Positions 3,901 through 26,662 of a DNA stretch of 64,000 nt are shown piece by piece. Each line of letters starts with the position of its first letter. The first letter of the stretch is position 1. The stretch is from assembly GCA_964582645.1 (NCBI GenBank), contig CAZOTB010000006.1, positions 1,972 to 65,971 of the forward strand, given 5' to 3'. The notes under the pieces were generated by a model. It had not been told where the DNA came from, searched no databases, and worked only from the letters and a program-made list of their open reading frames with translations. A program made the translations under genes and the position numbers. Source of the stretch: an uncultured Verrucomicrobiota bacterium (GTDB lineage: Bacteria > Verrucomicrobiota > Verrucomicrobiia > Palsa-1439 > CAZOTB01).

Positions 3901-5022
3901 TCATTTTGCCTGAGAAATCCTCAACCGCATCCACCGGATGTTCGTAATGGCATCCTCCTGACACCAGAAGACGAGGAATACTGCACCGCTGGGTAGCAGG
4001 GCCATCTGTGGAAAACCGAACTTCAGCCCGCTCAACTCCTCGCTTCGGTTGCCGACGCCCGTCATACCACTCGTCGCGCCCTGCCAAAGAGGGGCTTCGC
4101 ACAGATTGACCCATCGGTCCTTTTCGATGCGCGCGTGCGTGCCCCACAAGCCCGGCTTGTCGTGACGCCGATACGCTGCGAGCACGTGGTTGTCCCCGGC
4201 ATGAAGAAGCTTGCAAGTCTGAGCGAGAAAACCGGTGGGCCGCGGCGCCGAGAACGTACGTCCACGGTCGCGGCTGATGGTGTACGGCGTGGGATGTGTC
4301 TTGCCGGATTTCGGATCATAGACCCACGCCACGCTCACCAACCGTCCGTCAGCCAGCACGGTCACGCCTTGCTCCCAATGGATGCAGCCGGTCTTGCGTC
4401 CGTCGAATGTGCACCCCCAGATCGGCCATGTCCTGCCTCCGTCTTCACTGATGAGGATACCGGCTTGCTCGCCGTTGGGCAACTCGCCGTCCCAGCCGCG
4501 CCAGGTCGAGACGGGCGCGAACAAATCCCCACCCGGCATCTCGCGGACCGGATGACAGATCTCCCATGCGGGTCCACGAAATGGAGGCGTGAGAATGCGC
4601 GGCGCGGACCAACTCCGGCCGCCGTCCCGGCTTTCAACCGCGATCAGGTCGGAGGGAACGTAACCGAGGTTGGCGCGGTTGAGCACGCCTTCCTCCGGAT
4701 CGTCGCGATACATCAGCAGGCCGAACCCGAACATGCGCCCGTCGGAGAGCAGGCTCGTGCGGATCGTGTGCGTGGTCGGCCTGCCAGGGGGCGTCGAGAT
4801 CAACGGCCCTTGCAGTTCCCAACTCTTGCCGTCGTCGGTCGAGCGCGACAGTACGGTATGATAGTCCATACTCTCCGGCCCCTGGCCGATGTCGAACGTA
4901 CAAACCAACTCGCCGTTCGCCAGCCGTGAGATTGCCGGGTGCATCGCGTGGATGGCACGCAGATGCGGTTTGGGATTGCGGAAGACGAGGCCGGTCTCTG
5001 CGACGTGGATGGACGAAGTCAT
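3901..5022 (-). CDS. BNR/Asp-box repeat glycosyl hydrolase, exo-alpha-sialidase-like (GH33-like beta-propeller)
   Basis: Four Asp-box motifs (STDDGKSW, SRDGGRSW, SEDGGRTW, SRDRGRTF), 373 aa. Confidence 0.85.
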   Translation of the reverse strand: MTSSIHVAETGLVFRNPKPHLRAIHAMHPAISRLANGELVCTFDIGQGPESMDYHTVLSRSTDDGKSWELQGPLISTPPGRPTTHTIRTSLLSDGRMFGFGLLMYRDDPEEGVLNRANLGYVPSDLIAVESRDGGRSWSAPRILTPPFRGPAWEICHPVREMPGGDLFAPVSTWRGWDGELPNGEQAGILISEDGGRTWPIWGCTFDGRKTGCIHWEQGVTVLADGRLVSVAWVYDPKSGKTHPTPYTISRDRGRTFSAPRPTGFLAQTCKLLHAGDNHVLAAYRRHDKPGLWGTHARIEKDRWVNLCEAPLWQGATSGMTGVGNRSEELSGLKFGFPQMALLPSGAVFLVFWCQEDAITNIRWMRLRISQAK

Positions 5023-5970: not shown

Positions 5971-6840
5971 TCATTCGCGCCGACGAAGGACGAGCAGGAC
6001 GCCACTTGCCGCACACAACAGGGCCGCGCTTGTCGGCTCGGGGACCACCAGTGTGAAATCATCGAAGCCGGCTCGCCGGCTCGCCTCGCCGGTTGTAGTT
6101 CCAAGCGACAAGACAATGCTTTGAATCTTCGAAAGGTCCCCACCCGCCCAGGTCAGCCCGCTGACATCGGCGCCATTTAGCGCGAGGCGGAAGGTGTCGC
6201 TTACGAAATCCGCCTGGATGGTCAGGTCCTGCCACGTGTTGACCTTGAATACCATGCCGGGAATCGTGTGTGTACCGCTGCCGTCCACGTACTGCACCGT
6301 TCCATCCAATCCGGAGCCGCCGTCGCGCAATCGAATGTCGAAGGCCGGACTCGTACCAACTGTTGCAGCGCTATCATAGCCAGTGATTCGCACGGCGCCG
6401 CGCCAGCCATCGTGCCCCGAGAGGCCGAAAATCTTGGTCGTCAGATCGAGCGCGGTGGCTGATTGCATCAAGGCCTGATCTGTGACCGAGATCGGCGCCC
6501 ATGCCTGCCCGACATTGCCACCCGTGTCGAAGCTCTGCATCGTGTGGAGGTACTGTTGACCGGAGGCAGCGGCAAAGGACGGGTAAGAAAACCCACCGGT
6601 CAGGTTCTGTGGATGTCGCACCTCTTGCACGTAGTACACCTGGTCCTCGACGACCGCCCAACTCGGTCCGACCACCGGGGTGGTGGGATCGTTGTCACTC
6701 GTTTCCAGCCAGTACGTGGCCGAGGACACCGGACTCTCGAAATCGTCTTTGAAGATGACGGTCTGTGCAGTGGCCGATGCGGCCCATGCCCATGCGGCGG
6801 CGACTGCGATCAAAACTTTGCCGTAGCGTTGTGTGCTCAT
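5971..6840 (-). CDS. PEP-CTERM sorting-domain secreted protein
   Basis: Signal peptide [26 protein letters not shown]. The C-terminus [25 protein letters not shown] has a PEP motif, a TM helix and an Arg-rich tail. Confidence 0.85.
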
Positions 6841-6911: not shown

Positions 6912-8099
6912 TCAGGTAACCAACCGTCGCGGGGCCGATACCGAACCGCCCGCGACGAATCGCGGCATGATTCGCACCGGCATGGGTCGGCGCGGCCCGT
7001 CACGCGCCGTCTGCAACACCATTCGCGCGAGCTGCCGGGCAAACGCAAACGGATCGAGCGCATATCGCGACACCGTTGGGATCACGTACCGCAGACAAGG
7101 ATCGTCGCCCATCGAGATGATTGACACATCCGCCGGCACGCGCAGCCCGATTCTCGTCAGGTGTCCGAGGACGGTCAGCACTTCCAGCGCGTCTGAAACC
7201 ACCAGCGCGGTCGGGGAGGATTGACTCTGTAACAGCGACTCCACCGTCCGACAGAGGGCTTCCACCGTACCGTCATGATGCACAATGCGCGCGGTCACTC
7301 GCCCTCGTTCGAGCTTCTGGACTGCGAACGAGAAGCCGCGTTCGAGTTGGTGGTATCCGGCTAATTCACTCTGGAGAATCAGCAGGGCGATGTTTTTGTG
7401 TCCTTTTGCCAGGAGCAAATCCACGGCATGCTGGGCGGCTGCCTGATTGTCAATGTCCACCGAGGGCAACGGCACGTCCGCCTCGCACGAACCAAACACG
7501 ACCGACGGCAACCCCCTCCCGGCGAACCAGCGATGTGTCTCCCGTTGCACGCTCCAGAGAATCCAGCAATCGGCGGGCATCTGCCCGACGGTCTTCGACA
7601 GCGTGCGCGCGCAATCATGGAGTCCGAACCGAGGACTGATGGCAATCTGCAGCTCCAGTCCTGCGCGATACAACTGTTTCTGCAAATCCTCCAGCACGAC
7701 AGTGAACCGCTGATGGACAACATCCAGCGGCGTTGCTCCCAGAATCTGCACCCGCCCGGTGGTCTCCCGCCGCGCTGCCCGCGCGGGACGAATCGTGATG
7801 AGACGTCGCCGAGTACTCGACATGCGGAGCCAGCCCTGACGTTGCAGTTGATCGAGCGCGGTGCGCAGTGTCTTGCGACTGACCTGGAGTTCGTCGCACA
7901 GGCGCCGCTCGGCGGGAAGCGACCCCTTCCACTCGCCCTCGCGCAGCTTTCCTTTCAGGATTTCCACGACCTGTGTGGCGAGCGGCAGCCGGTGAGGCAA
8001 TGCCGTTACATCCTTCCCCTGTGTCCGAGCAGCGCGCACGTCGTGGCATGTAGCAGAAGATGACGGGGAAAGCCAAGCACGTCGTTCGTGCGCGCGCAT
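6912..8099 (-). CDS. GntR-HTH / LacI-type sugar-binding transcriptional regulator
   Basis: GntR-like HTH (LCDELQVSRKTLRTALDQLQRQGWL) followed by a periplasmic-binding-protein-like effector domain. The true start may be downstream of 8099. The plus-strand ORF 7398..8063 is its antisense. Confidence 0.85.
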   Translation of the reverse strand: MRAHERRAWLSPSSSATCHDVRAARTQGKDVTALPHRLPLATQVVEILKGKLREGEWKGSLPAERRLCDELQVSRKTLRTALDQLQRQGWLRMSSTRRRLITIRPARAARRETTGRVQILGATPLDVVHQRFTVVLEDLQKQLYRAGLELQIAISPRFGLHDCARTLSKTVGQMPADCWILWSVQRETHRWFAGRGLPSVVFGSCEADVPLPSVDIDNQAAAQHAVDLLLAKGHKNIALLILQSELAGYHQLERGFSFAVQKLERGRVTARIVHHDGTVEALCRTVESLLQSQSSPTALVVSDALEVLTVLGHLTRIGLRVPADVSIISMGDDPCLRYVIPTVSRYALDPFAFARQLARMVLQTARDGPRRPMPVRIMPRFVAGGSVSAPRRLVT

Positions 8100-8200: not shown

Positions 8201-8560
8201 TCACTTCAATGTTCCGTCCGGGTTATACTTGGCGCATTCCGCGAGATGGTCGCGCTCGATCATTTCGGCAAGTTCGTTGCGATCCTTGAAGACCTGCATC
8301 GTCGGCACCTTGAACTTTGTCTTTCTCCATCGCTTCCTCTTTTCGAAGTTCATCAGCAACGTCTGCCCGGTGGTGTTATCATCCACGATGAAGATCGGGC
8401 GTCGCTCCCACTTGATGGCGGGAAACAGCTCGTGCTGCTGCAACTCGTGGTCGGGCGGTAATGCTTCCTTGATCTGGGCAATGAACTCGTCCGCGAACTC
8501 AAGGTAGATCAAAGTCCATGGCCATTTGACTTCGAGAGCGTCGTTCTTGGTTGTTGTCAT
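8201..8560 (-). CDS. hypothetical small protein (119 aa), locally lower GC
   Basis: Clean ORF with GC about 52% against about 64% in the flanks. No recognisable motif. Confidence 0.45.
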   Translation of the reverse strand: MTTTKNDALEVKWPWTLIYLEFADEFIAQIKEALPPDHELQQHELFPAIKWERRPIFIVDDNTTGQTLLMNFEKRKRWRKTKFKVPTMQVFKDRNELAEMIERDHLAECAKYNPDGTLK

Positions 8561-8783: not shown

Positions 8784-9821
8784 ATGAGCGGGCAGAAGCA
8801 TGTCGAAATCCGTGAGTACCTGTTGAGCCGCATCCGCCGCGGATTGCTCCGGCCGGGGGACAAGGCACCGTCGGAATACGAGCTCGCGCGGCGATTCAAC
8901 GTCAACAAGACCACCGCGAACAAGGCTGTGGCGATGCTCGTCTCGGAAGGATTCCTCGAACGGCGCAAAGGCGCGGGCACGTTTGTCGTCAATGAATTCG
9001 CCACCGTCACTCCCGCGATTGGCATCTACACGAACCTCAAGTCGGGGTCGTACTTCCCGCAGTTGCTGATCGGAGTCGAAGAGGAAGCGTACGCGCGCGG
9101 GTACAGTGTCACGTTCTTGCAATTTCCCGGCTGGGGCGCCGAGTTCGATGCGGACCGATTCTGGAAATACGTCGCCTCCACCGGCATCAAGGGACTGATC
9201 ATCAACCGCCCGTTCCAGAAACCGCTGACGAACATCCCGACACTCTTCCTCGACACCGCGGCGCCTGCCGCCGATGTGGATCAGGTGCAGGTGGACAACG
9301 AAGAAGGCGGGCGATTGCTCGCGAAGCATTTCCTCGACATGGGACACAAGCACGTCGCGTTTGTCTCCCAGGATCCGTCGCGCGAGGATCTCGTCGCGCG
9401 AGCGCGCGGTTTTCTTGGCGCATTCGAGAAGCGCGGACTCGGCAAGCGATCGCACGATTTGCATTCCTTCTCACCCGCACAACACAACCTGCCCACCGTG
9501 TTGCGTCGGCTGCTCCTGACCAATGCGGAACTCACGGGGATCGGGTTCGACTCCGACCACGTGGCGCATCGGGCGATCGAGATTCTGCAAAAGCTGCCAA
9601 AGGCAAAGTGCGAGCAGATCTCCGTGGCGGGCTTCGGCAACGTCGCGCCCACGGGATTCCCGTACAAGCTAACGAGCATCGAGCAACACCCGCTCACGCT
9701 CGGCCATCTCGCCGCCAGCACGCTCATTGACCGTATCGAGGGACGAACGAAACATCCCGCCAGAGTTCTTGCGCCCGTCGAGTTGTTCCCGGGCGACACC
9801 GTCCGGCGCATCAACGCATGA
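8784..9821 (+). CDS. GntR-HTH / LacI-type sugar-binding transcriptional regulator
   Basis: EYELARRFNVNKTTANKAVAMLVSEGFL HTH followed by a PBP-like domain. It sits directly upstream of the PhyH-DapA-UroD operon. Start placed at MSGQKHVEIREYLL. Confidence 0.85.
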   Translation: MSGQKHVEIREYLLSRIRRGLLRPGDKAPSEYELARRFNVNKTTANKAVAMLVSEGFLERRKGAGTFVVNEFATVTPAIGIYTNLKSGSYFPQLLIGVEEEAYARGYSVTFLQFPGWGAEFDADRFWKYVASTGIKGLIINRPFQKPLTNIPTLFLDTAAPAADVDQVQVDNEEGGRLLAKHFLDMGHKHVAFVSQDPSREDLVARARGFLGAFEKRGLGKRSHDLHSFSPAQHNLPTVLRRLLLTNAELTGIGFDSDHVAHRAIEILQKLPKAKCEQISVAGFGNVAPTGFPYKLTSIEQHPLTLGHLAASTLIDRIEGRTKHPARVLAPVELFPGDTVRRINA

Positions 9822-9906
9822 CCCGCGCGGGGTGAATGAGTCGGAGCCGTCGGCTCAGACAGGATTTGCTTCTGCATCGGCTGCCACCCCGTGTAGGTTT
9901 TGCCGA

Positions 9907-10692
9907 ATGAACTGGGTCCATCCTGAGTTTCGCTACGGTGATGTCGAACATGACCAGTATCGGGAGCTTGGCTACAGCATCTTTCCGCGCTTCCTCTCGA
10001 CGCAAGCGGTGGCGCATGCGCGCAGCCACATGGATCGCATGCTCGGTCAACTCCAGCCCGGCAGGTTGTCCGATGAGATCTATTCGGCACACCAACAAGA
10101 GCCGTGGATCTTCGACCTCGCGACGCAGCCGTCCATCCTCGACATGATCGAACGACAGATCGGCCCGAACATCGTCCTCTGGTCGTCGCACCTGATCTGC
10201 AAACCGCCGCGCACGGGTCGCGCGATTCCGTGGCATCAGGATGCGCCGTACTGGAACGTTTCCGGCAACCTCTCGGGCGCGGTCTGGATCGCGTTCGACG
10301 ACATCGGCGCGGACAACGGCGGCATGGCGGTCCTGCCCGGCTGGCACAACAAGGGCACGCTCAAGGTCCGCGAGCGCGGCACGAGCTTCTTCAACGACGA
10401 GATTGATCCCTCCGCATTGCCGCCCAACCCTGATGCCGTGAAAGTGCAGTACGCCTTCCCAGCCGGTGGCGCGGCGACGCATCACGTGATGATGCCGCAC
10501 AACTCGATCCCCAACACCTCCGACCGCTGGCGGCGCGTGCTCGTGCTGCGTTACATGGCCGCCGACGGCGTCATGGGCGACAAGCTGTACGAGGATTACC
10601 GGACCGGCGCGAAGTTTCCGCGCGAGTTTTATCTCGTCCGCGGCCAGGATGTATTGCAACGAAGTCTGAAACGAAAACCGACTTATGACTGA
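9907..10692 (+). CDS. Phytanoyl-CoA dioxygenase (PhyH) family Fe(II)/2-oxoglutarate oxygenase
   Basis: WHQDAPYW (HxD) and a distal HNS histidine, a PhyH-like fold. ATG at 9907. Overlaps the next gene by 8 nt. Confidence 0.85.
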   Translation: MNWVHPEFRYGDVEHDQYRELGYSIFPRFLSTQAVAHARSHMDRMLGQLQPGRLSDEIYSAHQQEPWIFDLATQPSILDMIERQIGPNIVLWSSHLICKPPRTGRAIPWHQDAPYWNVSGNLSGAVWIAFDDIGADNGGMAVLPGWHNKGTLKVRERGTSFFNDEIDPSALPPNPDAVKVQYAFPAGGAATHHVMMPHNSIPNTSDRWRRVLVLRYMAADGVMGDKLYEDYRTGAKFPREFYLVRGQDVLQRSLKRKPTYD

Positions 10693-11620
10693 CAACTTTA
10701 CCGGATTGATTGCCGCGACGTTCACACCCTTCCATGCGGATGGGAGCTTGAATCTCGATGTGATTCCCGGCTACGTGGCGCGACTGCGTTCGCAGCATCT
10801 TGCGGGCGTCTTCGTCTGTGGCACGACCGGCGAGGGAGCTTCGCTGACGACCGACGAACGCACATTGGTCGCGGAACAATGGATGGCCGCGGTCGGGCGC
10901 GAACTGCCGGTGACGGTTCACGTGGGCCAAAATTCGCTTGAGGACGCGAAATCCCTGGCGCGGCATGCGCAGCAGATCGGAGCGAACGCGATCGCGGCCG
11001 TAGCACCCTCGTTCTTCCGGCCCGCGATGTCCGAACTGCTTTCGTTCTGCGCCGAACTGGCCGCCGGCGTGCCCGGCCTGCCGTTCTACTTCTATCACAT
11101 GCCTTCCTTGACAGGCGTCGAGTGCTCCCTGATCGAATTCCTCAAGGCCGCCACGGATCGCATTCCGAACTTCGCGGGCATCAAGTACACGCATGAGGAC
11201 CTTGACGAATTCGAGCGTTGCGTAGCGACCGCCGGTGCCCGCCAGCGGATGCTGTTCGGTCGGGATGAAATGCTCTTGTCGGGACTGGAATGCGGCGCGC
11301 ACGGCGCGGTGGGCAGCGCCTACAACTTCACCGCGCCCATGTTTCATCGTCTGCTCGCGGCCTGGCGCGACGGCGACCTCGCCACGGCAAAGCGGGAACA
11401 ACAACGCGCCGCCGACCTGATCACATTGCTGCGCGGATACGGCCTCATCCCCGCGCAGAAAGCATTGATGAAGCTGCTCGGAGTGGACTGCGGCCCGGCG
11501 CGTTTGCCGCTGCGGAGTCTTCCCGACGACGAATCCGCGCAATTGCGCGAGCAGTTAAGCCGGCTGGGGGTTTTTGATTGGGTCGCGACCCGTGATGACC
11601 TGCCGGCCCCCGCGTCTTGA
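10685..11620 (+). CDS. DapA/NanA-family class I aldolase (dihydrodipicolinate synthase / N-acetylneuraminate lyase family)
   Basis: GTTGE motif and a Schiff-base lysine context GIKYT. In a sialidase context an NanA-like function is plausible but unproven. Confidence 0.85.
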   Translation: MTDNFTGLIAATFTPFHADGSLNLDVIPGYVARLRSQHLAGVFVCGTTGEGASLTTDERTLVAEQWMAAVGRELPVTVHVGQNSLEDAKSLARHAQQIGANAIAAVAPSFFRPAMSELLSFCAELAAGVPGLPFYFYHMPSLTGVECSLIEFLKAATDRIPNFAGIKYTHEDLDEFERCVATAGARQRMLFGRDEMLLSGLECGAHGAVGSAYNFTAPMFHRLLAAWRDGDLATAKREQQRAADLITLLRGYGLIPAQKALMKLLGVDCGPARLPLRSLPDDESAQLREQLSRLGVFDWVATRDDLPAPAS

Positions 11621-11663
11621 TTCGCGGGCGCATCGAGTGCCGCTGCGCACTCGTCAGGGTTGT

Positions 11664-12788
11664 ATGAAGAACGTCCACCTCAAGCGATTGTTGGAACAAC
11701 TGGAGACAGCGATCCAGCCCGCGCGTCAAGCGGAGACGGACCGGCTGTACCAGCGGGCGCTTCGCTCGGAAGATACGGAGCGAATTCCGCTGAGCCTGGC
11801 CTATCCGCTGCCCGTGGACTCGTCGTTCAGTCCCTTTCCCCACCGCGAGTTGTTCGCTGATCCCGAGAAGATGCTGTTCAACGAACTCGTCCACGCCTTC
11901 GAGACCAGCATTCTGCATCACGCGACCGTGCAGGACGATTTGCCGTTCACGATCCGCGCGAACTTCGGCACCGGCGTGATCGCGCCGCTGTTCGGCGCGC
12001 GGGTCGAGCAAGTGGACGACAATCCGCCCTGGGTGCGCTCCTTCGAGAGCCTCGATGCATTCCAGCGCGTGTTCGACTGCGACCCGCTCGACTTCAGCCG
12101 GGGCTGGTGTCCGCGCGTCGTGGAACGCTACGAATTCTACCGCGCCACGCTCGCGGAATATCCGCGGCTCAACCGGGCGGTGTGGCGCGTGTTGCCCGAC
12201 CTGCAAGGGCCGATGGACACAGCGGAGATGTTGCGCGGCAGCGAATGGTATGAGGATTTGGTCGAGCGACCCGCGATGGTGAACAAGTTACTCGCGCTGC
12301 TGGCCCAGGCCCAGGTCGGGTTCGCGCGACGGCTGCAACCGTTGCTCAACGACGGCCCGCCCGGCTTCTGCCATCAGCACGCGAGCGCGTTGGCCGGTAA
12401 CATCCTCATCCGGAACGACTCCGCGATCATGATTTCCCCGGCGATGTACCGGGAACAGATCGCGCCGCACGACGAATGGGTGTTGCGGGAGATGGGCGGC
12501 GGCGGCATCCATTCCTGCGGCAACATCGGCCACCTGGCGGCGGAATATCTGCGACTGCCCTCGCTGCGCGCGCTCGATCTCGGCCAGCCGGAACTGAACG
12601 ATCTCGATTCCCTGTACGCGCTGGCCCGCGCGCGGAAGGTCGCGTTGATCCGGGTGGACGTACCCGAGGACGAACTCGTGTCGGGCCGCGTCCGCGAACG
12701 TTTTCCCACCGGCGTAACGCTGCGACACCGATCAGCGTCGCTGGCGGCGGCGGCGCAACTCATGGCCCGCTACCGGGGCGCATCATGA
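11664..12788 (+). CDS. Uroporphyrinogen-decarboxylase (URO-D) fold protein, MtaA/CmuA-like
   Basis: URO-D-like length with an H-S-C-G zinc-type motif (GGGGIHSCGNIGH). Its stop overlaps the start of the next gene (ATGA). Confidence 0.7.
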   Translation: MKNVHLKRLLEQLETAIQPARQAETDRLYQRALRSEDTERIPLSLAYPLPVDSSFSPFPHRELFADPEKMLFNELVHAFETSILHHATVQDDLPFTIRANFGTGVIAPLFGARVEQVDDNPPWVRSFESLDAFQRVFDCDPLDFSRGWCPRVVERYEFYRATLAEYPRLNRAVWRVLPDLQGPMDTAEMLRGSEWYEDLVERPAMVNKLLALLAQAQVGFARRLQPLLNDGPPGFCHQHASALAGNILIRNDSAIMISPAMYREQIAPHDEWVLREMGGGGIHSCGNIGHLAAEYLRLPSLRALDLGQPELNDLDSLYALARARKVALIRVDVPEDELVSGRVRERFPTGVTLRHRSASLAAAAQLMARYRGAS

Positions 12789-13780
12789 CCGCGCGCGCAT
12801 TGGCTTTGGAGGCGCTGGCGCACCGCGTGCCACCGCGAATCCCTTGGACACTCTACGTGGCCAAGCCGCTCGCGGCGAAGTTGGAGAAACTCTGGGGCGC
12901 GCGGGAAAACTGGCCGTGTCCGGCGGACGATCTCGTCCGCATTCTCTGGGATGTCGAGACCGAGGAGGTCGGCCCGGCCTTGTTCCGGGATCGGTTCGGC
13001 TGCGAATGGAAACGGGAGCCGGGCGGTTACGTGTTCGTCAACCCGCCACTGACCGAGCCGGACGCGCGCCTGATCCCGCGCATCGAGTTGATCACCGACG
13101 ACGACGTGCGCCTGATCTGCACCACCCGGCAACGCCACCCCGACCGGTTCATCTTCTACCAGTTCACCGCGACGCTGGGCGAACGGTTGTGGAACTTGCG
13201 CGGCATGGAACAGACGCTGATGGATTACCTGAGCGAACCGAATTTCGTCCACGCCGCGCTCGATTTGTTGCTGGAACTGCACCTCACGGCACTGGAGAAA
13301 CTGCTGCCGTTGCCGGTGGACGGCGTCACGTTCGGCGATGACTACGGCGCGCAGCGCGGCTTGATGATCAGCCGGGAAGTGTTTCGGAAGTTCTACAAGC
13401 CGCGGTTGGCGAAGTTGTACGAGAAAGTGCGCGCCGCCGGCAAGATCGTCGGCCATCACTCCTGCGGGGACAATACGCCCATCCTGCGCGACTTCGTGGA
13501 CATTGGGTTGCAGATGTTTCATCCGCTCCAGCCGGAAGCGATGGACATCCGGCAGGTGAAACGCGAATTCGGCCAGCACCTCACCTTCCGCGGCGGCATC
13601 GGCACGCAACGGGCGATTGTGTTCGGCACGCCCGCCCAAGCGCGGGCCGAAGTGCTCGAGGCCGTCCGCATTCTGTCCGCAGGCGGGGGCTATTTCCTCG
13701 AAACCGCCAAGCCGTTGCCGGAAGAAACACCCGTGGAAAACGCGGTGGCGGTAATCGAGGCGATGGTGGCCGCGAGATAG
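12785..13780 (+). CDS. Uroporphyrinogen-decarboxylase (URO-D) fold protein, second paralog
   Basis: GKIVGHHSCGDNTPIL motif. Translationally coupled to the preceding gene. Confidence 0.7.
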   Translation: MTARALALEALAHRVPPRIPWTLYVAKPLAAKLEKLWGARENWPCPADDLVRILWDVETEEVGPALFRDRFGCEWKREPGGYVFVNPPLTEPDARLIPRIELITDDDVRLICTTRQRHPDRFIFYQFTATLGERLWNLRGMEQTLMDYLSEPNFVHAALDLLLELHLTALEKLLPLPVDGVTFGDDYGAQRGLMISREVFRKFYKPRLAKLYEKVRAAGKIVGHHSCGDNTPILRDFVDIGLQMFHPLQPEAMDIRQVKREFGQHLTFRGGIGTQRAIVFGTPAQARAEVLEAVRILSAGGGYFLETAKPLPEETPVENAVAVIEAMVAAR

Positions 13781-13790
13781 GCTCGCCCTG

Positions 13791-14582
13791 TCAGCCCAGT
13801 TCGGCCTCGAACGCCGCGACTTCCGGGAAGCGCGTTCGCCCGCGCACCAATCGACCGAGGCGTGGCTTGCGATGGTTGTACACTTCGACCGCGTCCGCGT
13901 CGGCGTAGCGGAGGAACAGGATGCGCCGGTCGCGGTCCTTCGACCGGTTGCCTTCGGACTTGTGCAGCATCCAGCAGTTGAAGATCAGGCACTCGCCCGC
14001 TTGCAACGGCGCGGGGACAGCTTTTGATTCATCGGCCTCGACCACAACTTCCACACCGGCTTTCTTCTGCTCGGGCGTCATCTGGTTGCGAACGTTGATC
14101 TGGCCCTGGCGATGGCTGCCGGGGATGATCCAGAGACAGCCGTTCTCAACGTCGGCATCGTCGAGCGCGGTCAGGCAGGTAATCGCATTGTAGGGATCGA
14201 GTTCGCCGTAGCCGTTGTCCTGATGCCAGCCGAACGGTTTGGTGTTGCCGCGCATCTTGAAGGTGAGCTGCGAAGTCGCGCCCTTGATGTTCGGGCCGAT
14301 GATTTGTTCGGCCACGTCCACGAGCGGGCCGCGGAAGTAATAATCGCGAATGACCGGCGCCTTGTGATGAATGTTCTGGAGCAGCGCGTTTTGCAGCCAG
14401 GTCTTGGTCGGATCGAACGGCCCTTTCTCCGCTTCCCACGCACGCATCGCCTGCTCGCGCATCAGCGTCAGCCCACGGTTGGTCAACGTGCGACCCAGGA
14501 GCAGATAGCCGTCGTCCTGGTATTGCGCCAGGTTGGTCGCGGTGAGCTTCCGGTATTGAAACAGTTCGTTCAGTGGATTCAT
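13791..14582 (-). CDS. Phytanoyl-CoA dioxygenase (PhyH) family oxygenase
   Basis: WHQDNGY HxD motif and a PhyH-like length. Convergent with the plus-strand operon. Confidence 0.85.
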   Translation of the reverse strand: MNPLNELFQYRKLTATNLAQYQDDGYLLLGRTLTNRGLTLMREQAMRAWEAEKGPFDPTKTWLQNALLQNIHHKAPVIRDYYFRGPLVDVAEQIIGPNIKGATSQLTFKMRGNTKPFGWHQDNGYGELDPYNAITCLTALDDADVENGCLWIIPGSHRQGQINVRNQMTPEQKKAGVEVVVEADESKAVPAPLQAGECLIFNCWMLHKSEGNRSKDRDRRILFLRYADADAVEVYNHRKPRLGRLVRGRTRFPEVAAFEAELG

Positions 14583-14615: not shown

Positions 14616-16859
14616 TCATGGTCGGAGCCGGATGGTTTGTCTCCGTTTCAAGGAGAGCGTGATGATCTTGTGTCGCCACGGGCTTTTGACGCGCGCCGTG
14701 CCGCCGAGTTCGCTGTGGATGATGATCTCCACCGTCCGACCTTTGCGCCGGCGGGCCGAAACCAGAAACGCCCCGGCTGCTCGCAATTTCGCGAACGACA
14801 CATCTTTCCAGTCGCGTGGCACAGCGGGAAAGACACGGATCATACCGTTGTGGCTTTGCAGCAGCATTTCCAGCAGGGCGGCGCTGAAACCGGAGTTGGT
14901 CTCGTTGGTGAAGATTTTCGCCGCGGCCATGCCGCGACCGGTGCCCCGGAAATCAAAGTTCCAGTTGAACCCGCCCGTCGCCGACGTGTACACGTCCATG
15001 AATTCGCGCAACAAGTCCCGCGCTTGGTCGCCCCGGCCCACCCGCGCGCACGCGGCGGCGACCCAGACGGGTGAGAATCCGCCCCACAGCCAGCGGCCTT
15101 TCTCGATGAACCGGTCAAGCGACCGTTCCGCCGGCGGGCCGGTCAGGTCGGCACACGGATACACAGGAGTCAACACGCCCGGATGCCGGTGCGAATACAG
15201 AAACTCCTTGCTCTCCATTTCGATCAAATGACCCCGACGCATTGGGTAGGGGGGTAGATGGGCGAGTCGTTCCCGACATTGTCTCGCCAGGTCGGCATCG
15301 CACCCTAGCGTGTCGCAGCTTTCCATGACCGCGCGGAAGAGCAACCGGATCAGCGCGAGGTCCATCGCGGGGTTCTTGCCCCACGCTTCGTAGCTCCCCT
15401 CGCCCGCTTCCGGGGTGTTCGACGGCCAGATGTCGTATTGGCCACGCCGGTTCTTCGTCAGGAAATCCAAGTAGAACGCGGCGCACTCTTTCAGGAACGG
15501 ATACGCCACCTCGCGCAGAAACCTTTTGTCGCGCGAATACTGGTAATGCGTCCAGAAATTCTGCGCCACAAACGCCGCGTGACCGGCCCAGTGGAGCGTC
15601 GTCACGTAACCGCGCGGTGCGAGGCCCGCATGCGGCGACGCGCAACAGGAGAACTGCACCCCGCGACAGCCCCAGTACTCCCGCGTGAACCGCCGGCTTT
15701 CCACCAGCCAGCCCCGGACCGTGTCATAGTACGGCCAACCCAGTTCCAGGTGGTTGCTGGCGTAGATCGGCCAGTAGTTCATCTGGATGTTCAGGTCGTT
15801 GGTGTAATCGTTCCAGCTCTTTCCCTCCGGCTCCATCCGCCACAACCCTTGCAGCCCGGGCATCAGGCAGCCGCGCCGGGAGGAACTCCCGAGCAGGTAC
15901 AGGCCGAAATGATATTGGCGCAGGAGGTTCGTGTCGGGAATCTGCACACGCGACGCGTTCCAGAACATCGTCCACCAGCGCCGATGCGTGGTGTGAATGC
16001 GCCCGAACCCCGCGGCGGCTGCCGCCCAGACGCGCCGGCAGGCTTCCGTTTTGGCCGCCGGTGTATCGCGGTGGGACACCAATGCCAGATAGATCACGAA
16101 CTCCGCGCGGCTCTCCGCCGTCAGCGTGATGCGCTGCGCGCTCGCGGCGACCTGCGACCCCCGCGCCGCGCCCTGCGCCAGGACCGCGATTGTATAGTCC
16201 TCGTTGTGCCAGCCGCGCACGCGATGCCAGAGAATCCCGCCGGTGCAACCGGCGGCCACGGTCGCTTTGGGGTCCTGCGGCTGGTTCTCCAGCGTCAGGT
16301 CCATCCCGAACGTCATCGGCCGGGGCGGGTTGCCGCGCCGCCAGTCCATCTGATGGCGGACGCGGATCGCCAGCACCTGATGCTCGACGCTGACCAGCGC
16401 TTCGATCAGTTGGCGGCGGACGCGCGTCTGGAACGACGTGGCAACCAGCGCCCGTTGCATGTCGAGCCGGTAGCCAAAGTCCAGCAACTCGATCTCATGC
16501 TCGAACCGGCTGGTGTCGAGCACCAGCGCGCCCGCCGGCAACAGACAGAATTTGCCGCGCCATTTCCGGGTGGCTTCCGCAAACGCCAGCTCAATGCGCT
16601 CCCATTGCTCGCGTTCGATCCACTGGCGCACCGTGGCGAACCGCTCGGCGACGCGGAAGGAGCGCCGTCGGCCCGTACCGTCGTCGCAGCGTTCGTCCCA
16701 GACGTTGGATTTCGCGAGGCGGAACGTGGTTCGCTTGTGGTACGGGATCACCAGCGCGCCGAGGTCGCCGTTGCCAAGTGGCACGCCGTCCGGGATCTCG
16801 CAGCAGAAATTGTGGTGCGCGAAGTTCCAGGCGTCAGATTGGATGGTGTTCACGGTCAA
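14616..16859 (-). CDS. Glycoside hydrolase family 95-like (alpha-L-fucosidase-type, six-hairpin) protein
   Basis: 747 aa with an NDLNIQMNYWP motif resembling the GH95 catalytic N-x-N region. Confidence 0.65.
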   Translation of the reverse strand: MTVNTIQSDAWNFAHHNFCCEIPDGVPLGNGDLGALVIPYHKRTTFRLAKSNVWDERCDDGTGRRRSFRVAERFATVRQWIEREQWERIELAFAEATRKWRGKFCLLPAGALVLDTSRFEHEIELLDFGYRLDMQRALVATSFQTRVRRQLIEALVSVEHQVLAIRVRHQMDWRRGNPPRPMTFGMDLTLENQPQDPKATVAAGCTGGILWHRVRGWHNEDYTIAVLAQGAARGSQVAASAQRITLTAESRAEFVIYLALVSHRDTPAAKTEACRRVWAAAAAGFGRIHTTHRRWWTMFWNASRVQIPDTNLLRQYHFGLYLLGSSSRRGCLMPGLQGLWRMEPEGKSWNDYTNDLNIQMNYWPIYASNHLELGWPYYDTVRGWLVESRRFTREYWGCRGVQFSCCASPHAGLAPRGYVTTLHWAGHAAFVAQNFWTHYQYSRDKRFLREVAYPFLKECAAFYLDFLTKNRRGQYDIWPSNTPEAGEGSYEAWGKNPAMDLALIRLLFRAVMESCDTLGCDADLARQCRERLAHLPPYPMRRGHLIEMESKEFLYSHRHPGVLTPVYPCADLTGPPAERSLDRFIEKGRWLWGGFSPVWVAAACARVGRGDQARDLLREFMDVYTSATGGFNWNFDFRGTGRGMAAAKIFTNETNSGFSAALLEMLLQSHNGMIRVFPAVPRDWKDVSFAKLRAAGAFLVSARRRKGRTVEIIIHSELGGTARVKSPWRHKIITLSLKRRQTIRLRP

Positions 16860-17530
16860 AACTTGCGGGCGGCGCGGTCAATCCGCACCTCGTCGATCAG
16901 ACCTTCAAAGTCGCCATCGTGCGCCCGGTCGCCGATGCGCAGCGTGCGGTAGGGATTCGTGATGTCGAGCAACTCCTTCGTTGATACCGGCGTGCCCGCA
17001 ACGCCATCCACCACGAGCATCGCATTCGCTTTACGCTCGGCCACGAGCACAATGTGATGCCACTGACCGTCGGTGACCGTCGTCGGATGGGCGATGATGA
17101 TTCGGTGCTGGCCGTCGGCGATGACCGCCACGACCCTGCCAGCATCCAGCACGATCATCCAACCCGGCTCGACCTCGTCGCCCCGGCACTTTTTGTTGAT
17201 CAGATGCGCCCACCGGTTCGTCGTGGTGGTACGCATCCACAACTCGACGGTAAAATCGGTGGTTTCCCCAAAATCAAGGTCGGGTCGCTCGCCGCGTTCG
17301 CCGCCGCAGTCCACGAAATCATCGTCGCCGTCGAACTGCAGCGCCTGGCCGACCTTGCCGGGCATCAGTTTCGCGCCCGTGATCTGGCCGTGGTTGTTGC
17401 GCCCGCTCGTATCGCGCGCGACGCGGTTCGTGGCTTCGTCGAAATGCAGGAGCAGGATCGGGGCGTCCTCCGCGCAGGCGAGGGTTGTAGCGAGCAAAAG
17501 CAGCGTGAAGGCAAAAAAGGGGACATTCAT
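16856..17530 (-). CDS. Secreted LamG/concanavalin-A-like lectin domain protein
   Basis: Signal peptide MNVPFFAFTLLLLATTLACA and a Laminin_G_3-like body. The stop overlaps the GH95 start (ATGA). Start chosen at 17530 rather than the track's 17614. Confidence 0.7.
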   Translation of the reverse strand: MNVPFFAFTLLLLATTLACAEDAPILLLHFDEATNRVARDTSGRNNHGQITGAKLMPGKVGQALQFDGDDDFVDCGGERGERPDLDFGETTDFTVELWMRTTTTNRWAHLINKKCRGDEVEPGWMIVLDAGRVVAVIADGQHRIIIAHPTTVTDGQWHHIVLVAERKANAMLVVDGVAGTPVSTKELLDITNPYRTLRIGDRAHDGDFEGLIDEVRIDRAARKF

Positions 17531-17605
17531 AATTTTCGCCGCCAAAGATGGTTCTCTTTCGATTCGCGCATCGATGGCGAAAATTATGAATGTCCCCTTT
17601 TTTGC
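17511..17605. repeat. 30-bp perfect inverted repeat with a 35-nt spacer (17511..17540 / 17576..17605)
   Basis: gcaaaaaaggggacattcataattttcgcc and its exact reverse complement. The left arm contains the LamG start codon, and the structure lies 6 bp downstream of the DUF4838-like gene stop. Confidence 0.9.
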
Positions 17606-17610
17606 CTGGT

Positions 17611-20085
17611 TCATTCAAACCTCCATTCGCCGAAATTGTTGGGTTCGGCGAAATGTGCTTCGACGCTGTTCCAACTCGTGTACTCGTTGGCAGGACGTTC
17701 TTCGCGGGTCAGGTTCCCGAACCACACTGCGCCCGCGGGCGCTTCTTTCAGGCCGAGCGTGGCAAACGGAATCCGAAGTTCCGCCGTCCACGACGCGCCG
17801 TTGGTCCGGACGGCGCACGTCCACTCCAGGTTGTAGGCGGCGTTGTGCTTGAGGCCGTCCCACTGCGCGCCGGTCGGGTTCGTGGCGAGATGCCACCACT
17901 GATTGCGGTCCGACGTGTGACTGAAAAACACCTCGGCCACATCGTCCGCGTGGTAGAACCGGTCCGCATCGCGCGGCCATGACTGGCCCACGATCTCATC
18001 CGGTTTGGGTTCGGCGCAGTCGAACGCGATGTAGAGGTTCTGGTCGTCGTACACCAACCGGGCGGTGGTTGCCTTCGTGCCCGGTACGCGCATGCCGCGC
18101 ACCCGAAACGCATCCGCCACCGCCGCCTTCTGCCAAGCCGCGTCCGAGAGAGCGCCATTGACGGTTGGCGCAGCGACTCCCGCCGGCAGGCGCGGGATGG
18201 TCAGCGTGCGCGTCTCCGGCGCCCAAACGGGCTGCGGGTGGCGCGCGATGACGAACGAGTCGGTGGCCGGGACGGGGGGCCCGGGCGGGAGGTTGAGCAG
18301 TCCCGCTTGTCGCAGGTTCTCGCGAAGCAGGGCCAGGTTGGCGCCAAACATTTCCAGCCGTTTGCGTTGCGGTTCGGTGGCGGCGCGGTTCAACGCCTGC
18401 TGGTAGAGCGTCTCCATCCGGCCGTAAAGCGGCAGGTAAACGTCGCGCACCATTTCATAGTTCACTTCGTAATTGCGTATTGCGGTTTCAGTGAGCTTGT
18501 ACCGGCGAATGGCGTCATCGAGCATCGTGAACAAGTCGCGCATGGAAGTCCAGCCGGGGCCGTAGGCGCGGCGCAACCATTCTTCATACGTGCGCCGCAC
18601 ATCGAGGTCGCCGTCCCACGCCAGCTTGGCGTAGAGGTAATTGATCGGCGCGCCGTAACCCCAGGCTTCCGCGCCGACCAGGTACAGGCCGGTGCCGCCA
18701 AGGCGGTGGATGGTGGGAATCTCCAGGCTCAACAGTTCGAGGCTCGGCGGCGTGGGCGTGCCCGAGGCCGAGCGCAACCACACCGTGTAGCTCTGGTAGC
18801 TGAAGTGCCGGGTCAACTGCGCCCACTCACGCGCCACGCGCACGAACTCCTGCCGGTACTGCGGCTTGTACAAGGCATAGCCGTAGTAGTCGATGTGGGC
18901 CCAGTTGAGCGCGACGTTGGGTTCGAGCGTGATCGGTCGTTGCGGCGGGTACTGGTAGTTGAAGTACACGAGGCCGCAGAGCAGTTTGTCGGGATGCCTG
19001 GCGGCGACGAGCCGCGCGACGTCGTTGTAGAACTTGAGGATCAGGTAACTAAACGAATCGTTGCCGTGCGGGTCTTTCTCGATCAAGGGCCGGCACCGGT
19101 CGCACCGGCAAAAACCGGGGCCGTCGGCGGGCGAGATCGAAAGGACCGGGTACTCGGGATGTCGTTCAATGCTGCGGATCACGCCGTCAGCGAACGCGCG
19201 CACCACGTCTTCCCGGCTGGTGCAGAATTTGTCTTTGTCGCCGCCGACCGCGAGCCATTCGGGATGTTGTTTCAACAAAGCGGAGGGGATGTGGTCATCC
19301 CACGCATGCGCCATCTGCAACAGCAGCGTGCCGCCGAGTTTCTGGCGGCGCACCCATTCGTCCACAGCCGGGTGACCCGGATTGTGGGCGCCGTGTCCGC
19401 TCTCGTGGATGTACGCGAGCCGGCGCATCTGGAAATCGGGCGCCTCGGTGAGATTGATCCGCGGCAACCGCCACGTCGCGCGCTGGGGGATGTCCTCGCC
19501 CCATTCGCCCGGCAACAGCCAACGCACGTCGAGATACCTTTCGAGGAACGTGTACGTGCCGAGCAGTGTCCCACGGCTGATCCGCAAGTCACTGGGGGCG
19601 TACCCCGGTTGGAAGATCTGCTTGGAATCCGGATCATCGCGCCCGGCGATGAACAGGTCCGCGCCGCGCGTCCGAATCACAAAGCCGTCATCCGGCAGCC
19701 CGGACAAGTCAATCTGCCCGGTGTCACCGAGGGCGATCATCGGCGAGGCGGGTCTGTGGACGATGGGCAGTTTCTCCCCGGTGGCGATTTCGATGACGCG
19801 CTGGAGTTCCTGCGCGGCGAGCGTCACGGAAGAGGGCGCGTTGGCGTCATGATAGATCCGGTACGACGACTGAGTGCCGGTGTGAACACAAGAGACAAGG
19901 AAGAACGCGACGAAGAGCAAGCTGAAGCTTGTACTCCAAACGCAAGCTGGGAATGGTCTCGTTCGGAGTACAAGCTTCAGCTTGCTTCGTTTGCCCGTTC
20001 TCAAATCAATCCCTCGGCCCGCGCCAGCCAATACGCCCACAACCAGTGGACCAGCGCGTCGCCGTCGAAGGCGCGGGTCATCCAT
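17611..20085 (-). CDS. DUF4838-like putative glycoside hydrolase with a C-terminal CBM9/DOMON-like domain
   Basis: About 800 aa with a lipoprotein-like signal (LLFVAFFLVSC). The true start is probably the TTG near 19920 inside hairpin copy 2, because the 20085 ATG overlaps the upstream gene by 85 bp. Confidence 0.7.
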   Translation of the reverse strand: MDDPRLRRRRAGPLVVGVLAGAGRGIDLRTGKRSKLKLVLRTRPFPACVWSTSFSLLFVAFFLVSCVHTGTQSSYRIYHDANAPSSVTLAAQELQRVIEIATGEKLPIVHRPASPMIALGDTGQIDLSGLPDDGFVIRTRGADLFIAGRDDPDSKQIFQPGYAPSDLRISRGTLLGTYTFLERYLDVRWLLPGEWGEDIPQRATWRLPRINLTEAPDFQMRRLAYIHESGHGAHNPGHPAVDEWVRRQKLGGTLLLQMAHAWDDHIPSALLKQHPEWLAVGGDKDKFCTSREDVVRAFADGVIRSIERHPEYPVLSISPADGPGFCRCDRCRPLIEKDPHGNDSFSYLILKFYNDVARLVAARHPDKLLCGLVYFNYQYPPQRPITLEPNVALNWAHIDYYGYALYKPQYRQEFVRVAREWAQLTRHFSYQSYTVWLRSASGTPTPPSLELLSLEIPTIHRLGGTGLYLVGAEAWGYGAPINYLYAKLAWDGDLDVRRTYEEWLRRAYGPGWTSMRDLFTMLDDAIRRYKLTETAIRNYEVNYEMVRDVYLPLYGRMETLYQQALNRAATEPQRKRLEMFGANLALLRENLRQAGLLNLPPGPPVPATDSFVIARHPQPVWAPETRTLTIPRLPAGVAAPTVNGALSDAAWQKAAVADAFRVRGMRVPGTKATTARLVYDDQNLYIAFDCAEPKPDEIVGQSWPRDADRFYHADDVAEVFFSHTSDRNQWWHLATNPTGAQWDGLKHNAAYNLEWTCAVRTNGASWTAELRIPFATLGLKEAPAGAVWFGNLTREERPANEYTSWNSVEAHFAEPNNFGEWRFE
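19917..19985. repeat. Hairpin repeat element, copy 2 (26/25-nt arms gcaagctgaagcttgtactccaaacg / gttcggagtacaagcttcagcttgc, 18-nt loop)
   Basis: Near-perfect inverted repeat whose arms encode the first residues of the downstream secreted protein. Confidence 0.9.
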
Positions 20086-26224: not shown

Positions 26225-26230
26225 TGCGGG

Positions 26231-26617
26231 CTAGCGAGAGGCGGTCCGACAAAAGTCGTCTGCACGCTCGATCATTCGATTCAGCATTGCGCCGACGTGT
26301 TGCCATCGGTCGTCCATTTCCCGGTGCTGCGCCAGGGTCAGGTAACCGCAGTCCACGGCGTGATCAAGCCAAGCCTGTGTTTCCATTGCTTCACCCAGAG
26401 CATCGTCAATCTTGCTGATAAAGGACGCCGGATACCGTCGGCGCGCCCAAGCTTCCGCGATCATCGCATTCACCGCGCGGGAGGAACGCCGTATCTGGTC
26501 GGTGAGTGAGTACTTCTCTTCGGGCGGAAATCCGTTTGTGATCAAGAATACCTTCTTTGCTTCTGCACGGGCGAGCTTGTAAACCTCCAAGTCCCGAAAA
26601 CTCCGAATAGCCGGCAT
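26231..26617 (-). CDS. Four-helix-bundle protein (23S rRNA intervening-sequence protein family, PF05635/TIGR02436-like)
   Basis: FRDLEVYKLARAEAKKVFLITNGFPPEEKYSLTDQIRRSSRAVNAMIAEAW matches the family signature. Strong RBS ggaaggag. Inserted between MoxR and DUF58. Confidence 0.85.
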   Translation of the reverse strand: MPAIRSFRDLEVYKLARAEAKKVFLITNGFPPEEKYSLTDQIRRSSRAVNAMIAEAWARRRYPASFISKIDDALGEAMETQAWLDHAVDCGYLTLAQHREMDDRWQHVGAMLNRMIERADDFCRTASR

Positions 26618-26636
26618 GAGTTGCTCCTTCCTGCGA

Positions 26637-26662
26637 TCCTCTATCCTCTATCCTCTATCCTC
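26637..26662. repeat. CCTCTAT heptamer tandem repeat (tcctctatcctctatcctctatcctc), right partner of the inverted pair
   Basis: Its reverse complement equals the 26193..26218 repeat with one mismatch. It lies in the 5' UTR of the four-helix-bundle gene. Confidence 0.85.

Follow-up and report, generated by a model that had tools for sequence, protein, structure and literature searches.

A putative operon for the catabolism of modified sialic or ulosonic acids, with two divergent URO-D-fold proteins, in an uncultured Verrucomicrobiota bacterium

In a 64,000-nucleotide stretch of the genome of an uncultured Verrucomicrobiota bacterium (GenBank assembly GCA_964582645.1, contig CAZOTB010000006.1, positions 1,972 to 65,971; hereafter called the window), four tightly coupled genes encode a PhyH-family oxygenase (PhyH1), an aldolase of the N-acetylneuraminate lyase (NAL) type, and two proteins of the URO-D fold (UROD1 and UROD2), with a gene for a hybrid GntR/LacI-type regulator directly upstream. 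We conclude, with a probability of roughly 0.75 to 0.8, that this operon serves the cytoplasmic catabolism of a modified sialic or ulosonic acid, in which the lyase would cleave a carbon-carbon bond and the PhyH and URO-D proteins would tailor the substrate. The URO-D proteins are probably accessory enzymes of this catabolism and not heme enzymes. A first-pass annotation of the window had proposed a route for sugars or sugar acids; since the aldolase is of the NAL type and relatives of the URO-D proteins are encoded in loci with sialidase, NanA, NanM-SSF, and YhcH genes, that idea can now be narrowed to the sialic and ulosonic acids.

Operon structure and encoded proteins

The open reading frames (ORFs) of the window were compared with independent gene calls from the Joint Genome Institute (JGI; 238-kb contig Ga0394876_0000091, metagenome 3300037465), and every coordinate of the first-pass annotation matched both sets; together with Pfam searches, this comparison bore out the gene identities and the tight coupling described there. 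The operon starts with the gene encoding PhyH1 (positions 9907 to 10692, plus strand), an Fe(II)/2-oxoglutarate oxygenase, the end of which overlaps the start of the lyase gene (10685 to 11620, plus strand; Pfam DHDPS, 184 bits) by 8 nucleotides. After a spacing of 43 nucleotides follow the genes for UROD1 (11664 to 12788, plus strand), a divergent URO-D-fold protein belonging to an unnamed family, and UROD2 (12785 to 13780, plus strand; Pfam URO-D, 67 bits), an MtaA-like member of the URO-D family, with the stop codon of the former and the start codon of the latter overlapping by 4 nucleotides (ATGA). Convergent with the operon lies the gene for a second Fe(II)/2-oxoglutarate oxygenase, PhyH2 (13791 to 14582, minus strand). 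Since the arrangement recurs in an independent assembly (locus L088), at 82 to 88% protein identity and with both overlaps kept, it is not a chance juxtaposition. Inspection of the N termini revealed no signal peptide in PhyH1, PhyH2, the lyase, UROD1, or UROD2, which points to cytoplasmic chemistry.

The lyase is a class I aldolase of the DHDPS family, and its top three phmmer matches in the PDB were all solved NALs (6arh, E = 8.5e-62; 6h4e, E = 1.8e-61; 5afd, E = 1.2e-60), whereas DapA enzymes matched at an E value of about 1e-28 or weaker. Among its homologues, the catalytic Y137, the Schiff-base lysine K167 (11183 to 11185), the sugar-binding G-x-D-E segment G192-R-D194-E195, and S211 are invariant. 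Its scores were below the NanA equivalog cutoffs of NCBIfam (PRK04147, 160.9 versus 281; TIGR00683, 123.9 versus 382). We therefore classify it as a NAL-like DHDPS-family enzyme, the substrate of which could be N-acetylneuraminic acid (Neu5Ac) or, equally, N-glycolylneuraminic acid (Neu5Gc), 2-keto-3-deoxynononic acid (Kdn), 3-deoxy-D-manno-oct-2-ulosonic acid (Kdo), or a bacterial nonulosonic acid.

Because the score of UROD1 against Pfam URO-D (17 bits) is under the cutoff, its fold assignment rests on structure. The AlphaFold2 models of UROD1 and UROD2 (predicted local distance difference test score, 95.3 for both) both have the (beta/alpha)8 fold of URO-D, and the best PDB match in Foldseek was MtaA in each case (for UROD1, 4ay8, E = 1.4e-10, followed by HemE structures; for UROD2, 4ay7, E = 3.8e-14, 19% identity). 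HemE structures matched the two models with E values of 1e-9 to 1e-12, template modeling scores of 0.55 to 0.74, and identities of 13 to 16%. A search of PDB sequences with the UROD1 profile returned no match. Within NCBIfam, only models of the MtaA/CmuA type were matched, all far below their cutoffs (PRK06252, 44.9 bits for UROD2 and 22.2 bits for UROD1 versus 244; TIGR01463, 35.6 versus 235.4), and no HemE model was matched by either protein. Both proteins, which share 15 to 19% identity with MtaA, are nearer to MtaA than to HemE and are members of neither family.

Comparison with hhalign showed UROD1 and UROD2 to be homologous (probability, 93%), with the motifs H-S-C-G and Q-P-E falling in the same columns. 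Alignment of UROD1 with its homologues (A1) identified H237-Q-H239, D252, H283-S-C285-G (12510 to 12521), and D305-L-G-Q-P-E as invariant; the corresponding alignment for UROD2 (A2) yielded D185-D186, H225-S-C227-G (13457 to 13468), Q249-P-E251, and K309 (13709 to 13711). The H-S-C-G motif, spotted in both proteins at the first pass, is therefore invariant in both families. In a phmmer alignment to MtaA 4ay7, H225 and C227 of UROD2 coincide with the zinc-binding His and Cys, and Q249-P-E251 is found at the place of the acidic residues of MtaA; a His/Cys/Glu metal site in both proteins is plausible on the basis of these alignments. Both families are large: UROD1 has hundreds of homologues at 55 to 60% identity, all annotated as hypothetical, and 191 clusters at an E value of at most 1e-30 in a library of 50%-identity representatives, while more than 200 homologues were found for UROD2. 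Among the 150 best UROD1 representatives, which are at most 484 amino acids long, there was no fusion that would reveal a partner domain.

PhyH1 and PhyH2 score above the Pfam PhyH cutoff (90 and 119 bits, respectively), and the H-x-D...H iron triad and the Arg for 2-oxoglutarate binding can be recognized in their translations and alignments as W-H-Q-D, a more distal His, and a segment R-x-x-x-x-x-R-Y. The best PDB relatives of PhyH1 are 6zyk, EvdO2, and SnoK, and those of PhyH2 include SnoK, PHYHD1, and EvdO1. An orthologue of PhyH2 is encoded between the DHDPS gene and UROD1 in L088, and a 60%-identical homologue was found in L060. PhyH1 was considered as a member of a conserved module and rejected as such; its homologues at 57 to 64% identity have further PhyH genes, a DAO/AstE pair, or unrelated genes as neighbors, and the oxygenases are therefore an addition specific to this lineage. 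The genome from which the window derives has an expanded set of PhyH genes, and PhyH triplets are also present in the relatives L090 and L092. Within the window, a separate small cluster (52905 to 56400) combines an AraC regulator, a third PhyH-family oxygenase (53696 to 54751), and a protein of the metallo-beta-lactamase fold.

The gene directly upstream of the operon (8784 to 9821, plus strand) encodes, as noted before, a regulator composed of a GntR helix-turn-helix domain (Pfam GntR, 60 bits) and a LacI-type periplasmic-binding-protein domain (Peripla_BP_3, 63 bits; Peripla_BP_1, 55 bits). L088 contains an orthologue at the same position, and L082 contains one with 59% identity. Directly following the stop codon of the regulator gene, a 15-nucleotide block, GGGTGAATGAGTCGG (9830 to 9844), is identical in L088, while pairwise alignment showed the remainder of the spacer to have diverged; this block may be an operator or promoter element. 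The search for a regulator site upstream of position 9907, which the first-pass annotation had called for, thus produced a conserved direct block but no convincing inverted repeat: the only palindromes detected were weak ones of 10 to 12 nucleotides, none of which were kept in L088, and they were discarded as operator candidates. A second regulator gene of the same hybrid type (6912 to 8099, minus strand; Pfam GntR and Peripla_BP_3/1; a shorter start in the JGI call, giving 362 amino acids) is located back to back with the first on the opposite strand, with a 119-amino-acid ORF without a family match (8201 to 8560) between the two. Homologues of this second regulator (34 to 39% identity) also flank NanA/NanM-SSF loci (L097, L106, L132, and L133) in metagenomes.

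Neighborhoods of the URO-D genes and of the operon

To place the URO-D genes in context, 80 UROD1 genome loci were fetched, which came from Verrucomicrobiota, Planctomycetota, Bacteroidota (Prolixibacteraceae among them), Lentisphaerota, Chloroflexota, Spirochaetota, Sumerlaeota, and other groups. Their ORFs were clustered de novo, and counts were made over the 60 loci that were 8 kb or longer, which represent at least eight phyla; genes were called with a simple longest-ORF heuristic, with some miscalls in GC-rich DNA, and the counts are therefore approximate. The commonest Pfam-verified partners were DHDPS-family aldolases, BNR sialidase-like proteins, to which 60 of the 888 ORFs belonged, additional URO-D paralogs (in 18 of the 60 loci), NanM (PF24996)-SSF fusion transporters, sulfatases, RraA-like aldolases, MFS transporters, PF12831 flavin adenine dinucleotide (FAD) oxidoreductases, SusC/D, YhcH/DUF386, LamG, and DUF4838. 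When BNR sialidases, NanA-like lyases, NanM-SSF, and YhcH were taken as sialic markers, at least one was present in 30 loci and at least two in 25. A DHDPS gene lay directly beside a URO-D gene in 10 loci. Two gene orders recurred, namely, BNR-DHDPS-BNR-NanM/SSF-[FAD oxidoreductase]-UROD1 and SusC/D-BNR-BNR-UROD1-RraA-BNR-MFS-DHDPS-URO-D.

The full cassette recurs only in the close relative L088, which has the BNR gene, the regulator gene, PhyH1-DHDPS, PhyH2, UROD1-UROD2, LamG, and DUF4838/CBM9, with GH95 absent; the four-gene unit as drawn at the first pass is therefore not conserved beyond close relatives. L082 has kept the regulator gene, UROD1-UROD2, LamG, and DUF4838, without DHDPS or PhyH. 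UROD2 homologues are found in L085 within the order LacI-DHDPS-LamG-UROD2-sulfatase, together with DUF4838/CBM9 and GH29 genes, in L086 beside an AGE-family epimerase gene, and in L087 near a DHDPS gene and another URO-D gene. Several neighbors of the operon accompany these relatives as well: the LamG gene adjoins UROD2 in L088 and L085, the DUF4838/CBM9 gene recurs near UROD1 or UROD2 in L082, L085, L088, L006, and L034, and a GH29-like gene resembling that of the window occurs near the UROD2 homologues of L085 and L087.

Some further arrangements deserve mention. In Prolixibacteraceae and relatives (L013, L014, L023, L024, L029, and L040), a gene for an RraA-like class II aldolase/decarboxylase is located immediately downstream of UROD1, and a second, divergent DHDPS gene lies directly beside a c3-type URO-D gene, so that each locus has two aldolase types. 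A PF12831 FAD-dependent oxidoreductase gene repeatedly adjoins UROD1 and NanM-SSF (L011, L020, L060, L073, L080, and L082), and its product may be an anaerobe-compatible counterpart of the PhyH oxygenases of the window. In L043, L045, and L048 (Victivallaceae, Lentisphaeria, and a bin labeled Oscillospiraceae), GH95 immediately downstream of the UROD1 homologue echoes the GH95 gene of the window. Finally, in L001/L002 (5239 to 12864), a UROD1 homologue with 60% identity follows genes for a polysaccharide lyase (Alginate_lyase and Hepar_II_III_C) and a malectin-like protein and precedes genes for a ROK kinase, an MFS protein, an SIS protein, and a HemN_C-type radical S-adenosylmethionine (SAM) protein, a context without sialic markers.

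In the window, the operon and the two regulator genes are part of a glycan cluster extending from approximately 3.9 to 25.2 kb, which also includes pseudopilin-like proteins. On one side, this cluster contains a BNR/sialidase-like beta-propeller protein (3901 to 5022, minus strand; 373 amino acids, no signal peptide; Pfam BNR_2 and BNR), with distant PDB matches to sialidases of glycoside hydrolase family 33 (GH33; e.g., 4bbw, E = 1.6e-5). On the other side follow a GH95 glycoside hydrolase of the alpha-L-fucosidase/alpha-L-galactosidase family (14616 to 16859, minus strand; Pfam Glyco_hydro_95_cat, 211 bits, plus N- and C-terminal domains), a secreted LamG/concanavalin-like lectin-fold protein (16856 to 17614, minus strand; Pfam Laminin_G_3, with a hydrophobic N terminus), and a putative secreted glycan-active enzyme combining DUF4838 and CBM9 (17611 to 20085, minus strand; Pfam DUF4838, 122 bits, and CBM9_1; 769 amino acids from the JGI start), for which no solved relative was found. 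A GH29-like protein (23048 to 25198, minus strand; Pfam Alpha_L_fucos/GHL6) marks the edge of the cluster. For several conserved neighbors, at positions 20001 to 21452, 5971 to 6840, and 843 to 2519 of the window and at positions 12841 to 16040 of L088, Pfam gave no family.

From 26 to 64 kb, the window has content unrelated to the operon, including AsnB, an amidohydrolase, and a sensor kinase. A Bat-like operon encoding a MoxR-type AAA ATPase and a DUF58/VWA protein (25283 to 27674) is likewise unrelated to our finding. The region from 28000 to 36000, with a GC content of 0.50 to 0.58 versus approximately 0.62 elsewhere, contains two large ORFs without a Pfam match (27947 to 29656 and 29664 to 31478), a DDE_3 transposase (33033 to 34127), and a HEAT-repeat protein and is probably an inserted mobile segment. 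A minus-strand ORF of 1,236 amino acids without a Pfam match (41660 to 45370) coincides with a strong AT-skew anomaly (-0.284 at 42001 to 44000) and adjoins genes for an FGE-sulfatase-domain protein (40527 to 41663) and a PKD/TPR protein (36533 to 39355).

Possible roles of the URO-D proteins

Our best explanation in full, for which we put the odds somewhat short of even, is that of a regulated operon for a modified sialic-acid-type sugar from fucosylated acidic glycans, with the URO-D pair removing a substituent. The steps that we infer would begin with the release of sugars by the secreted or envelope-located DUF4838/CBM9 and LamG proteins together with glycosidases that lack a signal peptide, namely, the BNR sialidase-like, GH95, and GH29-like proteins. 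The GntR/periplasmic-binding-protein regulator would then sense the sugar. Before cleavage, substituents that block the lyase would be removed, with the two O2-dependent PhyH oxygenases acting oxidatively and the translationally coupled UROD1 and UROD2 most likely carrying out an MtaA-like O-demethylation at a putative His/Cys/Glu metal site. In the end, the NAL-type class I aldolase would cleave the free 2-keto-3-deoxy acid, yielding pyruvate and an aldose. Of all this, the gene identities, folds, motifs, and operon structure are established, as is the repeated occurrence of both URO-D clades in sialidase/NanA/NanM-SSF loci, whereas the class of substrate, the succession of the steps, and the reactions of the URO-D and PhyH enzymes are our inference.

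Removal of a methyl group is the likeliest chemistry for the URO-D pair, even though we propose it only tentatively. It is favored by the MtaA-leaning profiles, by the precedent of methyltransferases in this fold, by the natural occurrence of methylated ulosonic acids, and by the corrinoid parts of one related locus. To our knowledge, all characterized members of the URO-D fold other than HemE are methyltransferases (PMC10418091). All fetched DNA (2.18 Mb in 173 sequences, about 170 loci) was scanned in six frames with phmmer and jackhmmer for B12-binding domains, and in a metagenome-assembled genome of the Tannerellaceae (L067, 620 to 8389; DBFJSK010000209.1), a tight operon was found to encode SusD, BNR, UROD1, a c3-type URO-D protein, a corrinoid protein (210 amino acids; PF02607 and PF02310, confirmed with Pfam), a MetH-activation-domain-like protein (PF02965), and DHDPS. 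The module is complete for methyl transfer and is flanked by a sialidase-like gene and a gene for an aldolase; it lends one piece of real support to the demethylation considered at the first pass. Candidate substrates exist, since 5-O-methyl-Kdo is found in sulfated prasinophyte walls (PMC3355719) and O-methylated sialic acids occur in nature (PMC6963189); the sulfatases and the second aldolase type of many loci would also fit methylated ulosonic-acid polymers. It is possible, if doubtful, that UROD1, UROD2, and the c3 clade represent the first case of activity on carbohydrates in the URO-D superfamily, being O-demethylases that act on methyl-ether ulosonic or sialic acids (5-O-methyl-Kdo or 8-O-methyl-sialic acid) or on coreleased methyl-fucose before aldol cleavage. 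Such enzymes would depend on corrinoid in anaerobes like the L067 organism and would possibly work with a distant corrinoid carrier, or with none, in aerobes.

Several observations weigh against demethylation or against the proposed pathway as a whole. The third zinc-binding Cys of MtaA aligns with the family-invariant Lys309 of UROD2, leaving the MtaA zinc triad incomplete. No B12-binding or corrinoid protein was detected in the 64-kb window by the six-frame scan, L067 was the only locus of the approximately 170 to have one, and neither the window nor nearly any related locus contains a RACE activase or corrinoid protein. Even the L067 evidence may not transfer, since its UROD1, which has 54 of the 62 family invariants, lacks H237 and H239, both invariant elsewhere in the family. 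Furthermore, alkyl methyl ethers do not readily donate their methyl group, the host seems to be an O2-using organism, and we know of no sugar O-demethylase of the URO-D fold. Most UROD1 and UROD2 genes lack a second URO-D gene nearby, which fits a self-sufficient enzyme better than a multicomponent methyltransferase. With regard to the pathway, Pfam identified no transporter in the cluster or anywhere else in the window, half of the UROD1 loci have no sialic marker within 10 kb (some adjoin polysaccharide lyase or GH95 genes instead), and the scores below the NanA equivalog cutoffs leave room for Kdn, Kdo, or a different keto-deoxy acid as the true substrate of the lyase. Finally, a reverse test was performed on 80 metagenome loci centered on NAL-type homologues of the lyase, with counts over the 46 loci of at least 6 kb: NanM-SSF was present in 19 and BNR in 14, and a URO-D-like gene was present in a single one. 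The URO-D proteins therefore appear to be accessory to a subset of sialic-type loci; a replacement of a core nan step by URO-D is made unlikely by this count, and the uncharacterized route envisaged at the first pass is better described as an accessory branch than as a new core route.

The incomplete zinc site and the solitary URO-D genes bring to mind a different activity, in which UROD1 and UROD2 would be self-sufficient metal-dependent hydrolases or lyases (de-O-acylase, de-N-acylase, lactonase, or etherase) that strip acyl, lactyl, or similar groups from sialic-type sugars in the cytoplasm, in functional analogy to NanS-type esterases. We consider this unlikely, although it is the main rival to our reading. 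These are single-domain families without B12-domain fusions, mostly without a partner URO-D gene or corrinoid protein; a His/Cys/Glu site that has lost its fourth ligand would look less like a zinc site for thiol activation than like an open, catalytic one; and SGNH/SASA sialate esterases are not among the recurrent neighbors, while O-acetylation is the commonest modification of sialic acids (PMC6963189). It leaves the corrinoid module of L067 unexplained, however, and the metal site on which it depends is a predicted one. Moreover, we know of no hydrolase in the URO-D superfamily. A role in remodeling the carbon skeleton itself, as an aldose isomerase or epimerase replacing AGE/NanE or as a metal-dependent sugar-acid dehydratase (e.g., converting L-fuconate, supplied by GH95 and GH29, to 2-keto-3-deoxy-fuconate), seems more improbable still. 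In its favor, DHDPS genes directly adjoin URO-D genes of three clades, in the 10 loci counted above, in the window, and in L034/L085; AGE, NanE, NanK, and ROK genes do not recur in these loci, some of which contain genes for an MR_MLE dehydratase and a 2-hydroxyacid dehydrogenase; the GH95 gene adjoining UROD1 in L043, L045, and L048 would be in keeping with such a role; and Foldseek reported weak secondary similarity to TIM barrels of metal-dependent sugar isomerases and epimerases. The reverse test nevertheless makes it less likely, given that no core step seems to be filled, and the AGE-family gene beside the UROD2 homologue of L086 argues that UROD2 is no replacement for AGE. In addition, the lyase is clearly of the NAL type and not of the type of 2-keto-3-deoxy-fuconate or 2-keto-3-deoxy-gluconate aldolases, and the operon contains neither a sugar dehydrogenase nor a lactonase gene that could serve the oxidative breakdown of fucose.

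That the URO-D genes are ordinary hemE genes or duplicates thereof, placed in a glycan cluster by coincidence, is effectively excluded. The URO-D fold is shared, with HemE structures listed after MtaA by Foldseek, JGI labels UROD2 as "uroporphyrinogen decarboxylase," and one UROD1 homologue is located near the HemN_C-type radical SAM gene mentioned above. However, proteins of the HemE family have a conserved N-terminal substrate-binding motif, R-Q-A-G-R, which upon inspection was absent from the consensus sequences and invariant lists of A1 and A2. The low identity to HemE structures, the lack of any NCBIfam HemE match or, for the UROD1 profile, of any PDB sequence match, the invariant H-S-C-G aligned with the zinc ligands of MtaA, and a glycan-catabolism context that is consistent across many phyla all speak against it as well. 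Decarboxylation, the other chemistry raised at the first pass, found nothing in its support: the substrate class has no electron sink, and no HemE model was matched. We retain the catabolism of a modified sialic or ulosonic acid as the probable function of the operon, with demethylation by the URO-D pair as a tentative part of it.

Significance and comparison with known systems

Glycan turnover is known to be hindered by methyl groups and other decorations on sugars, and a cytochrome P450 system is the only one described for sugar demethylation. If the reading given here is correct, a second and widespread solution, based on the URO-D/MtaA fold, would constitute a new enzyme function in carbohydrate catabolism and would explain why many genes labeled "uroporphyrinogen decarboxylase family" are found in sialidase loci of Planctomycetota, Verrucomicrobiota, Bacteroidota, Lentisphaerota, and other phyla; as O-demethylases, these proteins would supply a step so far missing from our picture of how methylated acidic glycans of algae and animals are broken down. 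Whatever the chemistry, two conserved but uncharacterized families have been placed in a defined pathway context, where they are directly testable, and automatic "HemE" annotations are corrected.

The first-pass annotation had not recognized the combination of genes from any described pathway, and full-text literature searches agreed with this: within the library that was searched, they yielded no described pathway of this kind and no paper linking URO-D-family genes to sialidases, polysaccharide utilization loci, fucoidan, or methylated sugars. With HemE, UROD1 and UROD2 share the (beta/alpha)8 fold; they differ in having no heme-gene context and in H-S-C-G and Q-P-E motifs that align with the metal ligands of MtaA and are not a feature of HemE. 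The MtaA/MtbA/MtsA/CmuA methyltransferases and the URO-D-family O-demethylase methyltransferases resemble them in fold, in being the best structural and profile match, in the H-x-C at zinc-ligand positions, and in the corrinoid protein and reactivation-type domain of L067. However, UROD1 and UROD2 fail the score cutoffs of that group, lack its full zinc site (His-x-Cys...Cys) and a cognate corrinoid partner, and occur in a context of glycan catabolism and not of methylotrophy.

The type 1 mlp clusters, with at least two Mlp proteins (approximately 30% identity to MtaA/MtbA), a corrinoid protein, and a RACE activase (Kountz and Balskus, PMC10418091), likewise have several URO-D paralogs side by side in bacteria and a methyl substrate that is unknown. 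Those clusters occur only in obligate anaerobes, chiefly Firmicutes, and never lack the corrinoid protein and RACE (PMC10418091), whereas the window proteins are far more divergent, with only 15 to 19% identity to MtaA, derive from an apparently O2-using organism, and are encoded beside 2-oxoglutarate oxygenases without corrinoid or RACE partners. A conceptual analogue is the cytochrome P450 sugar O-demethylase of porphyran degraders, which acts on 6-O-methyl-galactose (PMC6292453) and is a dedicated cytoplasmic enzyme removing a methyl group that blocks the catabolism of a glycan sugar. It is a heme monooxygenase with redox partners and an unrelated fold, whereas the candidates in the window are PhyH-type 2-oxoglutarate oxygenases and a URO-D pair.

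The closest parallel is offered by the canonical sialic-acid loci (nanA/nanL, sialidase, NanM, SSF/MFS, and YhcH/NanQ; nanLET in Bacteroidota), with which the window cluster shares a NAL-type lyase and a BNR sialidase-like gene and the homologous URO-D loci share NanM-SSF fusions, several BNR genes, YhcH, and SusC/D. The window differs from them in having no transporter, NanE, NanK, or AGE and in adding two PhyH and two URO-D-fold proteins, which are not known from any described nan locus. Most NanA-type loci are without URO-D, and the lyase itself is below the NanA equivalog cutoffs. In summary, the locus works like a sialic-acid utilization cluster, but not like one of a described type.

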